Positions 16,501 through 21,214 of a stretch of DNA of 64,000 bases are shown here, piece by piece. Under the pieces are notes generated by a model. The model made no database searches and was not told the origin of the DNA. It saw only the letters and a list, made by a program, of their open reading frames with translations. This stretch comes from Adineta vaga (Eukaryota > Animalia > Rotifera). Both the position numbers and the translations under genes were made by a program. How positions within the stretch are numbered: the stretch's first letter is position 1; each line of letters opens with the position of its first letter. Where the stretch lies: contig CP075492.1 of NCBI GenBank assembly GCA_021613535.1, forward strand, positions 9,548,001 to 9,612,000. The letters run 5' to 3'.

Positions 16501-17358
16501 ACTTTTCACGAAAAATGAAACAACAACCATCAAATAAACAAAGCTAACAAGTATAAAGATGAAAAATGTTGCCATGGAAAATAATGATGAACCTAAGAGA
16601 CAAGTAATAAGACTAATCATATTAATAATCGTTCCATATAAAATTCTCCACCAATGTGAATCTTCAAACGCATCAGCTTTACCTTAAAATATAAATAGAA
16701 TCATTTATAAATAATTTTGGAATGTTTTCTGCAACATACTTCCTGGTCCAAAACTGGCTACTAATGCTTCGACAAGAGCGGCAACACTCTGACCATTACC
16801 AATAACATTAGCAAAGAAGAAAAGTACACCGATGGAACCACCAAATTCAGGTCCTAGAGCTCGTGATATCATATGATAAACACCACCGCCTTCAATTGCT
16901 CCATTGGTTGCTAATGCACAAACACTTAATAACGTACAAAAAAGTATAATAAAACAAAGACCAAATTGTAATAAAGTTTGTAAAACTCCAGCATTGGCAA
17001 CAACAAAGCCCATACGCATAAATAATGAAATGGAAAACATTGATAATGCAATGGGACAAAAGACTCCAGGAATAGTACGTAATGTACGTTTCGCATTATT
17101 TGGTAAAAATTCGACTCCTTCACTAGTTGTTTCAATAATGGGTACATGTGAAGATGATGTATTAAGTGGATTGATAGTATGAAATGATGTTGATGATGCT
17201 CCTTGAGCCCCCGTTGATAAATCAAAACGTTCATAGGAAGATAAATGACGATTTAATATAGGAAAATCTTCACGTCGTGTCATTGTTGGACTTGCATCAT
17301 TATCATTTGAAAATAATGTACGTCGGAGTGTTGCTCGTACACGATTAAAGCCGTTCAT
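13556..17358 (-). CDS. SLC12A9: Solute carrier family 12 member 9 (CCC-interacting protein)
   Basis: [68 protein letters not shown]; C-terminus [17 protein letters not shown]. Confidence 0.92.
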
Positions 17359-17973
17359 CTAGAAAAGAAAAAACAACGGATACTATATGTTTTTCTTAAA
17401 AAAAGAATAAATCATGAAATATGTACGCCCACATGTTTTCATAAGAGATATACAAAGTTGTATGACAAATACAACTCGAGAATGATGAATAAATATGAAA
17501 AAAACTTTCGTTTCTTCTCGTCTTCGATCATGATCGGCACATGCAATATAATACGTTTCTTTTTCTTCTTTCTTTCAAGTCACTCATCGTCCCCAAGTCG
17601 ATGAATCAGTGGATTGAAAATGAATGGCTCAAATTTTCTTCGCCTCGTATATAGAATTCAAAAGAGGTCGCTCAAATCACTTCGTCTAGTACACCGCATA
17701 CATAAAACATATTCGTTTTCATTAAATAAATTGCTTCTAAATTCTCTTAATCAGCTTTTGTGTTAGTTGTACACATAATACACCTTCACGAATCATTAAC
17801 TTTGAACAAAAATATGACTCTTTATACTCATTGAATCATGTACAAACTAAAGGTTAATGAGAACTAGATAAAATATTGAGGACACTATTTTCGATAAAGA
17901 TATCTTTGTTTTTTCTTTATCCTTACCTGTTGTAATCAGTTTCTTCTTTTTGCAACGTTTCATTACATCGAAT

Positions 17974-19332
17974 ATGTTTAAGTCAAGATTCGTCGTTGTT
18001 TTCTGCGCATTAATTGTCGTTAGCTATTTAACTTTTAACTATAAATCTCTACGACTTGTCTTTCATCCCGATCGTTATCATGGTATAAAAATTCGTTGTA
18101 TTGTCTTGATTTTAAGATGATATTTCTTATCAATTTTAGGTCATTCTATTTCCAATGGCGTCTTTTTCGAAGGATGGTATTATAAATTAGTTTTTGAAGA
18201 ATTAAAAAGTACCATTATTGTCATTCCGGGTGTACATAGAAGTGATAATGATCGTTTTACATTTACTATGATTGCATACGATAATACATCGAATTTTTTT
18301 CGTTTACCATTTGAAGCATTTTCTTCATCTACCGATGAATTCTTGGTAACAATTAATGATGACAAAAATATATTTTCTTACGAAAAATTGATTGTTAATC
18401 TTCAACCATCATCAACGGATGATGCTACAGAAAGTTTTCAAATGAATTTAACTCTTTCTTCACATCATACCATACCAGATCTATCTTGGTTAATGCCAGG
18501 AACAATGGGCCCTTTTTCATGGATGCCAACAATGCAATGTAATCATCATGTATTGAGTTTACAATATGAAGTACAAGGTTCTATAACAATAAATCAAAAT
18601 AAAAGCATGCCTGTTCATGGTGTGGGTTATCTAGAAAAAGATTGGGGCTATTCATTTCCATCAGTATGGATATGGGGCCAGGGTAATCAATGGGAACATC
18701 TTCCATCAACAATCTCACCTCCAAGTTTATTCTTTTCTTTGGCATTGATTCCATGGTATTTCAATCTAGAATTACCAGGTTTCCTTGTTATCTTCGAATA
18801 TAACGATGAAGTTTATCGTTTCAACTCATATTTATTATCACTGATCGATGACTTAACAGTTGATGAAACAACAAATCATATTTCATTTGCTGTTTATGAT
18901 ATTTCATTTCAACATAAACTTCATATTAGTACATATTGTGAAAATTGTAAAAATACTCCAAGCGTATTATTATATGGTCCACGTGATGATCGAATGGATA
19001 AATTTGTTCGAGAAATTCTAGTACGAAATATTTATTTCAATGTTCGATTAACAAGATTAATTCAAAACTTAACAACAGATCAAAACAATGAAGATCTTCT
19101 GATTCAACATGGTTATTCTGAAGAGATGATTTTTCAAGGACGTGCAAAGAATGTAGCAGTCGAAATCAATGGTGATATTCCATCGTTAATCAAAACATAT
19201 CGTACTATATTTGAAAACTTTCATCCTTGGAATTATTCATTCGGAAGAAGTTTAATTCAATATTACAAATTGGTCTTAGCGAGTATTTTAGGTATAATTG
19301 TCATACGTTTCGTTTTAGTTAAATGTCGATGA
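17974..19332 (+). CDS. Tocopherol-cyclase-family protein, bacterial type, membrane anchored (HGT candidate)
   Basis: Exon 1 17974-18082, intron 18083-18139. Motifs FHPDRYHG..FFEGWYYKL..IVIPG, MGPFSWMPTMQCNHHVLSL, GYLEKDWGYSFPSVWIWGQGN, ALIPW; hydrophobic segments at both ends. Confidence 0.8.
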
Positions 19333-19600: not shown

Positions 19601-21214
19601 CTATGAAGGTTTGTTGTCTACAGAATGTTCACAACATCGTAGTGGTTCGCATTCATTACTATTTGTAACACATTGATAATGACAACCTAATTTTTCAAAT
19701 TCATCCGTAGGCTAAATAAATAACATAAGATATTTCTATTCAAATTAAATTCAAATTTTACCAATGCAAATTCAGGTTGAATCGTCACATGATCAATATG
19801 AAGTGTTTGAAATATAAATGTAATATCTAAATATTTAGTTAGGATATCTTCAGTTGTATTAAATATGATATGAACAGTTGCTAATGTACGTTGTGGTGTT
19901 AAACGCCAGATATGTAATTCATGTATACTAGCAATGCCTGAAATCTAAATAAAAATCTTTGAAGTTTTTTTTTCTCTTATCATTTCATAAAGTTTTATAC
20001 GAACAGAATCACAAAGTATCTTTTCTACTTCAGTAGATTTTAGATTACACGGATTTGCTTGTAAAACAAGATGCATGACATGTCGCACTAAAGTAAATGA
20101 TTAAATTGAATCAAAAGTGTGAATTAATCATACTCGGAATAAAAATCATGAGCAAATAAGAAATAAAAAGAAAACAACAAATGATGGGATCAACAAGACG
20201 ACTGAATAAAATCAAAATATGTTGTTTATCTGATAACATCACTAGTAGAATACCACAAATCAAGATAGCTACTGGGCCAAGTAACATATTTAAAACTTGA
20301 AGATATGAATGATGAATTGATAATGTATCAGTAATAAGATCTACGAATGAATATAGTTCATAACTAACGAATTCTCAAATCAAATACATACGTGATTTCG
20401 ATAATAATTTCCTTGGTAATGGTTGTTTTAAACTTGATCTTCGTTGTTTCAGTTGTTCGTCTAATTTCATTGATCGTTTTATAACGATAACTACATCAAT
20501 CAAAGATATGATTCATGTAATAGCGAACTACTCTTCATACTTACATAGCATTGTAATACCTAATAAACAATTTGAAATCGTTGCATAAGCACCGATACCA
20601 AAAATGAAATGTGGACGATAAATAAGTGCTAAATAAGTTTTGTATATTGCTAGAAATGTGTGTGTGTGTTTTTGATAGAAAGGTTTTACCGTGATTATGA
20701 GCAGTTGGCAAACTTGTAGTATTCTTTTCTTGTTGTGGTATTAGAAAGACAACATCAATTAAATGTTTAATACTTTCAAGAAAAACCGAAATCGATAAGG
20801 ATATAAAACAAATAAAAGCCACTAATTCACCCACAACACCAACTGATAAAGAAAATTATTCGTGTCTATGATTTCCAAGACAAATAAACGTCTTACTTCG
20901 AGCTAATCCATATGTATGTCGAGAGGTAAATTTAGATTGAATCTATAAATTGACAAGTTAGATAGATTTTATTCATAATCTATAAAACAATATTATGTTA
21001 ACTTACTAATTTTGAGATTATTCGAACTGTACAAAGGATAGCTTGACATAGATGATAATAACCATCGAGAAGTAGTACCACTATTTGAATGTAAGTGATA
21101 ATATTTATAATTAATAATAAAAATCTACCTACCACTATGGCATGTATGATAACCAATTGTTTCAAGAATGAATAGAATAATATTATTAATTAATAAACAA
21201 CTAGCTAAAATCAT
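19601..21214 (-). CDS. SLC30/ZnT1-like cation diffusion facilitator, divergent
   Basis: HTYGLARIGVVGEL, VLQANP, IHELHIWRLT...ATVHI, HIDHVTIQPEF, Cys-rich tail CHYQC..CEPLRCC; ~8 exons. Confidence 0.8.

Follow-up and report, generated by a model that had tools for sequence, protein, structure and literature searches.

The locus described here raises the question of what a gene of the tocopherol cyclase family does in the genome of an animal, the bdelloid rotifer Adineta vaga, and how it came to be there, as vitamin E is described in PMC5745509 as a product of photosynthetic organisms solely. The gene lies in a window of 64,000 nucleotides (the whole stretch of DNA that was analysed), and an initial annotation had proposed it to be an integrated gene of bacterial type that may make or modify a chromanol-type lipid. 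In our preferred reading, to which we give a probability of roughly 0.55, the product would be a chromanol-forming cyclase that closes the ring of a prenyl-benzoquinol, giving a vitamin E-type product.

The gene is on the plus strand and consists of two exons encoding 433 amino acids (aa). The spliced coding sequence is identical to UJR09552.1 (P0001), whose gene is on a 20.35-Mb contig. The features of the gene and of its upstream neighbour, in window coordinates, are:

16705..17358, minus strand: SLC12-family neighbour, transcribed divergently, first coding exon; L108 and L109 have this gene order too
17974, plus strand: start codon ATG
17974..18082, plus strand: exon 1 (aa 1-36 and the first base of Gly37); RNA-like contig coverage from 17967/17996
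17974..18030, plus strand: hydrophobic helix at the N-terminus (aa 1-19), either a signal peptide or a signal anchor
18055..19176, plus strand: aa 28-382, catalytic domain predicted as a double beta-barrel with the AttH/Fsa2/CghA/kievitone hydratase fold (structure model, Z 18-21)
18083..18139, plus strand: intron of 57 nt, GT..AG, phase 1; same position in the bdelloid-like contigs L108, L109 and L111
18140..19332, plus strand: exon 2 through the stop codon
18166..18180, plus strand: FEGWY motif (aa 46-50), with 97-98% conservation across 91 rows of the subfamily
18505..18546, plus strand: MG...C-x-H motif, aa 159-172, with M159, G160 and H172 invariant
18628..18648, plus strand: YLEKDWG, aa 200-206, counterpart of YxEKNWG of the photosynthetic tocopherol cyclases
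19270..19326, plus strand: C-terminal hydrophobic helix, aa 414-432, aligning with the P0142 helix that precedes a methyltransferase domain

Every motif named in the initial annotation was found in the translated protein, and the hydrophobic anchors that it had placed at both ends correspond to the helices at aa 1-19 and 414-432. The spliceosomal intron was also confirmed, as the 57-nt GT..AG intron was absent from the contigs of two of the three RNA-like runs and kept in the DNA-like run; in the third RNA-like run the contig begins 3' of the intron and is uninformative there. The term RNA-like is a program's guess, as none of the listed runs is recorded as RNA. Positions 17500-17961 had no coverage in the RNA-like runs. 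The gene has a GC content of 0.313 and a GC3 of 0.198, the latter against 0.186 and 0.165 in two neighbours, which agrees with the host-like composition claimed earlier. Besides the SLC12-family gene upstream, TMEM33 is nearby, and the downstream neighbour has a weak match, below the cut-off, to a zinc-transporter dimer domain. A 50-nt intron of this zinc-transporter-like gene (19712-19761, minus strand) was spliced out in all three RNA-like runs.

In a search of 5.8 billion proteins, 59 homologs were found, 42 with 45-100% identity and 17 with 27-32%. All named members of the closer group were bdelloids, namely A. vaga, A. steineri, A. ricciae and Rotaria species (R. sordida, R. socialis, R. 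magnacalcarata, Silwood1 and Silwood2), and Rotaria has two paralog groups. The gene models P0063, P0067, P0073 and P0002 (A. steineri) are 490-815 aa long, and P0063 contains two cyclase domains in tandem, which suggests tandem duplication or merged models. The intron position was conserved in three bdelloid-like metagenome contigs, the divergent SLC12 neighbour was kept in two of these, and dN/dS in exon 2 was 0.20-0.49 in 6/6 pairs. The gene is therefore old in bdelloids, integrated and under purifying selection. Contamination was ruled out by the 20-Mb contig, the common intron and the synteny in two further contigs, and a pseudogene by the intact frame, the spliced contigs and a dN/dS below 0.5. 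The idea of a foreign, integrated tocopherol cyclase-family gene was supported by the host contig, the intron and its removal in RNA-like contigs, which points to expression, the bdelloid orthologs, synteny and selection, together with the family match and the tree described below. Foreign genes are frequent in bdelloids, so the transfer as such is ordinary and the chemistry would be the surprising part.

For the family assignment, the comparison with the Pfam profile PF14249 (Tocopherol_cycl) suggested with the initial annotation gave a match above the cut-off, a weak pass (E 4e-8, 33.1 bits against 26.6) with an alignment spanning only profile positions 143-212, i.e. 70 of 335; a second score was 32.6 bits, and three orthologs reached 33-48 bits. 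PDB sequence searches and NCBIfam gave no match to the protein. Like VTE1/SXD1/slr1737 (EC 5.5.1.24, PF14249), the rotifer protein passes the Pfam cut-off and has Y-x-E-K-x-W-G, and it also contains F-P-x-x-W-x-W-x-Q-x-N, a motif pointed out in PMC4963081. The conserved motif of the photosynthetic tocopherol cyclases, YxEKNWG (PMC4963081), is not matched in its canonical form, as the rotifer protein has YLEKDWG, with D where VTE1 has N. This D204 was invariant in 91/91 subfamily rows, and of the 54 columns with at least 85% conservation in these rows, A. vaga matched 53.

The 17 distant matches had E 1e-22 to 1e-37. In non-photosynthetic bacteria, cyclase-like proteins have been described whose function is unknown (PMC4963081), and the rotifer protein aligned over its length with this group, in Anaerolineae, Bacillota, Bacteroidota, Calditrichota, methanogens and other taxa. 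Those of bacteria and archaea have 27-35% identity to it over ~330 residues, with all core residues in common; judged by its sequence, the rotifer protein belongs to this uncharacterised non-photosynthetic subfamily. The prokaryotic members are ~330 aa long without anchors, whereas the rotifer protein has 433 aa and the putative anchors. VTE1 differs as well, having no evident hydrophobic region and being located on plastoglobules (PMC4963081), whereas helices are found at both ends of the rotifer protein; an excess of glycosylation sequons and an animal host without a known pathway are further features of the rotifer clade, unlike VTE1. In Dethiosulfatibacter, a bacterial cyclase homolog is fused to a barstar-family domain (P0269 / P0270).

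The origin of the gene was assessed with a careful tree of 48 of the 91 rows, which was midpoint-rooted and covered the non-photosynthetic subfamily only, with no canonical VTE1. The bdelloids were monophyletic (support 100/100) and their sister was P0142 (100/97), which was also the best non-bdelloid BLAST match, with 34% identity over 410 columns. Both were placed within a 12-row clade, apart from all named prokaryotes (98/99), in which the one named member is from Parmales, a stramenopile; apart from Parmales, we infer that the clade is eukaryotic (protist-like). Most of its unnamed proteins have N-terminal hydrophobic segments, and a D-D-A type insert is common to the clade. In contrast to the prokaryotic subfamily members, the rotifer protein falls among protist-like ones that have a P-x-x-x-D-D-A insert in common. 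P0190 shifted between trees and was left out of the protist-like clade. With 0.71 changes per column, the stem branch of the bdelloids is a long one, and the function may therefore have drifted.

The sister protein P0142 has 817 aa, with a C-terminal methyltransferase of 320 aa after a second hydrophobic helix, a fusion that rests on a single gene call on a 222-kb contig. Relatives of this methyltransferase are labelled as MPBQ/MSBQ methyltransferase, the step that immediately precedes the cyclase (PMC4071476). P0142 and the rotifer protein both have PGTMGP-x-SW-x-PTMQCNH, an HGY insert, a PW-x-x-S tail and both hydrophobic helices. P0142 continues into the methyltransferase beyond the second helix, whereas the rotifer protein ends at that helix and may be a truncated fusion; in algal members of the MPBQ/MSBQ methyltransferase family, too, the domain is preceded by a hydrophobic helix. 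P0142 would imply tocochromanol synthesis in its organism, probably a protist.

Because the nearest relatives are protist-like in the midpoint-rooted tree, a protist donor is likelier than a bacterial one; the gene was likely acquired from a protist, and a direct bacterial donor is not favoured. The term bacterial-type, used in the initial annotation, is thus appropriate for the subfamily but not for the donor. It is also conceivable that the gene is an old eukaryotic one lost in other animals, not transferred into rotifers. Its nesting in a eukaryote-like clade (98/99), which includes the taxonomically unplaced P0142, P0125, P0204 and P0245, would fit such a loss, as would the distant Ascomycota and Arthropoda (DUF7064) look-alikes shown by the Atlas, but we regard it as very unlikely. 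The broad metazoan orthologs that had been named as evidence against transfer were not among the 59 matches, which include no named non-bdelloid animal; of the 2,684 profile matches among 1.84 billion representatives, the top 150 held only two rows above ~35% identity to the query, both from the bdelloid clade; and the sole named member of the protist-like clade is a stramenopile. A KEGG label of tocopherol cyclase is reported for the Acropora digitifera v1 proteome (PMC3750612).

The genomic context of the prokaryotic relatives bears most directly on the chemistry. In the Latescibacterota locus L071, a geranylgeranyl reductase, HPPD (414 bits, cut-off 277), the cyclase, two methyltransferases and homogentisate phytyltransferase (HPT; 401 bits, cut-off 226) lie in one run, and the operons of L018 (Calditrichaceae) and L140 are similar. 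Going by sequence motifs and by similarity to algal sequences, the two methyltransferases of this operon type are presumably VTE3-like and gamma-TMT-like. The carriers of these apparent vitamin E operons are non-photosynthetic Latescibacterota and Calditrichota. The clusters, in coordinates of each locus, are:

L071:3328-9620, L018:5995-12886, L140:6659-12744, L004:1762-4622: vitamin E operons, apparently complete or nearly so
L049:343-11003: cyclase inside a Chloroflexota carotenoid cluster; also in L010, L023, L032, L040, L055, L058, L060, L063 and L078
L034:7277-8083: heliorhodopsin adjoining the cyclase, in Anaerolineae and methanogens; also in L037, L072, L074 and L077

Among 86 Calditrichota genomes, some of them incomplete, HPT and the cyclase occurred together in 14, HPT alone in 6, the cyclase alone in 13 and neither in 53. 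HPT was thus present in 20 (18 above the cut-off), and the cyclase was found in 14/20 genomes with HPT versus 13/66 without (Fisher p 5e-5, uncorrected for kinship); in 8 of the 14 HPT-cyclase pairs the two genes shared a strand and were at most 4 kb apart, and none of the 86 contained a second PF14249 match. Bacteroidota, Rhodothermales, Tectomicrobia and Chloroflexota were also named among the best 120 of 5,210 HPT matches. As the subfamily member is the only cyclase candidate in the vitamin E operons, ring closure is the best guess for its function, and the operons and the co-occurrence with HPT in Calditrichota provide good evidence that the non-photosynthetic subfamily would include true tocopherol cyclases. 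By fusion or clustering, relatives of the rotifer protein are linked to genes of the tocopherol pathway, to which VTE1 belongs.

Within the fetched flanks of 80 prokaryotic loci (53 with full flanks), tocopherol genes were found at 3, carotenoid clusters at 10 and a heliorhodopsin neighbour at 5. The Chloroflexota clusters contain crtI, crtB, lycopene cyclase, DUF6992 with an alpha/beta hydrolase, cruF, an acyltransferase, GT2 and a crtD-like gene. Since most prokaryotic relatives are without vitamin E neighbours, the enzyme may act on another substrate.

The structure model (pLDDT 88.9, pTM 0.87) has two lipocalin-like beta-barrels, and its fold matched AttH (NE1406), the fungal Diels-Alderases Fsa2/Phm7/CghA, kievitone hydratase and 25-phosphosteroid lyase with Z 16-21 (rmsd 3.4-4.6 over 256-290 residues), the next unrelated fold having Z 5. 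These proteins have the double barrel in common with the rotifer model, but their identity to it is 6-13%, without a match at the sequence level. The fold thus matches that of enzymes with isoprenoid or polyene substrates, in keeping with a chromanol cyclase, though by itself it gives no function. For the topology, 97 N-x-S/T sites (sequons) were observed versus 53 expected in 16 bdelloid-clade proteins, which are mutually non-independent, against 32 versus 27 in 20 prokaryote-type proteins; A. vaga alone has 5 versus 3.9, a non-significant excess, and N85 and N139 are recurrent. Together with the hydrophobic ends, the sequon excess suggests a membrane-anchored enzyme whose catalytic domain would be luminal or at the cell surface. 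A reduced quinol substrate would be odd at a luminal site, which counts against the chromanol cyclase. So do the EKDWG motif, the short Pfam alignment, the long bdelloid stem, the single gene call behind the P0142 fusion, the 13 Calditrichota genomes that have the cyclase but not HPT, the low number of tocopherol loci among the 80 and the failure to see a partner enzyme in the bdelloid searches described below.

In the mechanism that we propose, the substrate of the membrane-anchored cyclase would be a methylated prenyl-benzoquinol, and ring closure would turn it into a vitamin E-type antioxidant. An acidic residue in or near YLEKDWG would protonate the first prenyl double bond, and the neighbouring ring hydroxyl would capture the cation to form the chromanol, as proposed for VTE1. 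A proton donor has been proposed within the conserved cyclase motif (PMC4963081). The P0142 fusion and the bacterial operons support the chromanol chemistry of the initial annotation. Arabidopsis VTE1 accepts DMPBQ and plastoquinol-4, and not ubiquinol-4, menaquinol-4 or phylloquinol (PMC4963081), so host ubiquinol would be an unlikely substrate if the rotifer enzyme has retained this specificity. In the tocopherol redox cycle of plants, VTE1 has a further role, re-closing the ring once a dehydratase, yet to be identified, has acted (PMC4071476). In vivo, the likeliest role would be salvage, in which precursor quinols from algal or bacterial food are cyclised or oxidised vitamin E is re-closed; it is likelier than de novo synthesis, since no HPT or tocopherol methyltransferase was seen in bdelloids in the searches below.

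De novo synthesis of tocochromanols is a sub-case of the same chemistry, in which host HPPD would give homogentisate and a foreign prenyltransferase and methyltransferase would finish the pathway. The first 7,613 gene rows of the PMC12220480 table contain an expressed metazoan-type HPPD, a host-type 4-hydroxybenzoate polyprenyltransferase and FUN_005016-T1 (Table S2, A. vaga), an expressed, HGT-flagged prenyltransferase of the UbiA family with Streptomyces best hits, and non-photosynthetic protists have retained such pathways (PMC11528492). However, we consider de novo synthesis improbable. Those 7,613 rows contain no label with phytyl, MPBQ or tocopherol and no KEGG label of the pathway, no named bdelloid is among the best 120 of 5,210 HPT matches or the best 120 of 4,615 methyltransferase matches, and no pathway partner gene is within the 64-kb window, each of these being a weak test; in addition, the bdelloid protein ends where the P0142 methyltransferase starts. 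FUN_005016-T1 is a possible source of prenylated aromatics. For the role in desiccation or radiation tolerance suggested in the initial annotation, no link was shown: an expression row for the cyclase gene was not found in the readable supplement tables, nor was the gene found in the readable parts of the supplements of PMC10809525, PMC11258130, PMC3499245 and PMC4632278; as the word homogentisate is absent from all those tables, several of them probably carry no protein names.

Similar acid chemistry by which the enzyme would hydrate, dehydrate or cyclise a different isoprenoid, such as a carotenoid end group or a prenylated metabolite of food or pathogens, would account for the 10 of 80 loci in carotenoid clusters (with crtI, crtB, lycopene cyclase, cruF and glycosyl- and acyltransferase genes), for the many carriers, such as methanogens and clostridia, with no tocopherol genes nearby and for fold relatives that include kievitone hydratase, 25-phosphosteroid lyase and Diels-Alderases, and food or xenobiotic substrates would fit the luminal location. 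It is nevertheless unlikely, as the fusion partner of the closest relative is a prenylquinol methyltransferase and not a carotenoid enzyme, and members from carotenoid clusters and tocopherol operons form no separate supported clades. The double barrel fold, the membrane anchors and the lack of visible pathway partners could also indicate a non-catalytic, lipocalin-like protein that binds or transfers prenyl-lipids, which we find hard to credit, since E47, H172, E202, K203, D204, Q217, E328 and E378 are kept as in the operon-borne members.

Neither the rotifer gene nor the bacterial operons were found described in the full texts searched, mostly non-subscription, or in the readable bdelloid supplements. 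In the bdelloid papers examined, tocopherol is mentioned only in passing, tocopherol cyclase was not found in connection with bdelloids in the full texts searched, and no relevant literature on tocopherol in Calditrichota was found among the full texts searched.

That bdelloids would use a protist-derived, glycosylated membrane cyclase of their own to build or regenerate chromanols of the vitamin E type is a tentative proposal, which we place a little short of even odds. For the family, the uncharacterised subfamily would include true tocopherol cyclases, and Calditrichota and Latescibacterota would hold complete vitamin E operons, making it a testable question what the cyclase-like proteins found in non-photosynthetic microbes (PMC4963081) do. 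If the chromanol cyclase is true, an animal enzyme closing a chromanol ring would be the first of its kind in the literature searched, and a candidate lipid-phase component of the strong antioxidant protection of bdelloids.
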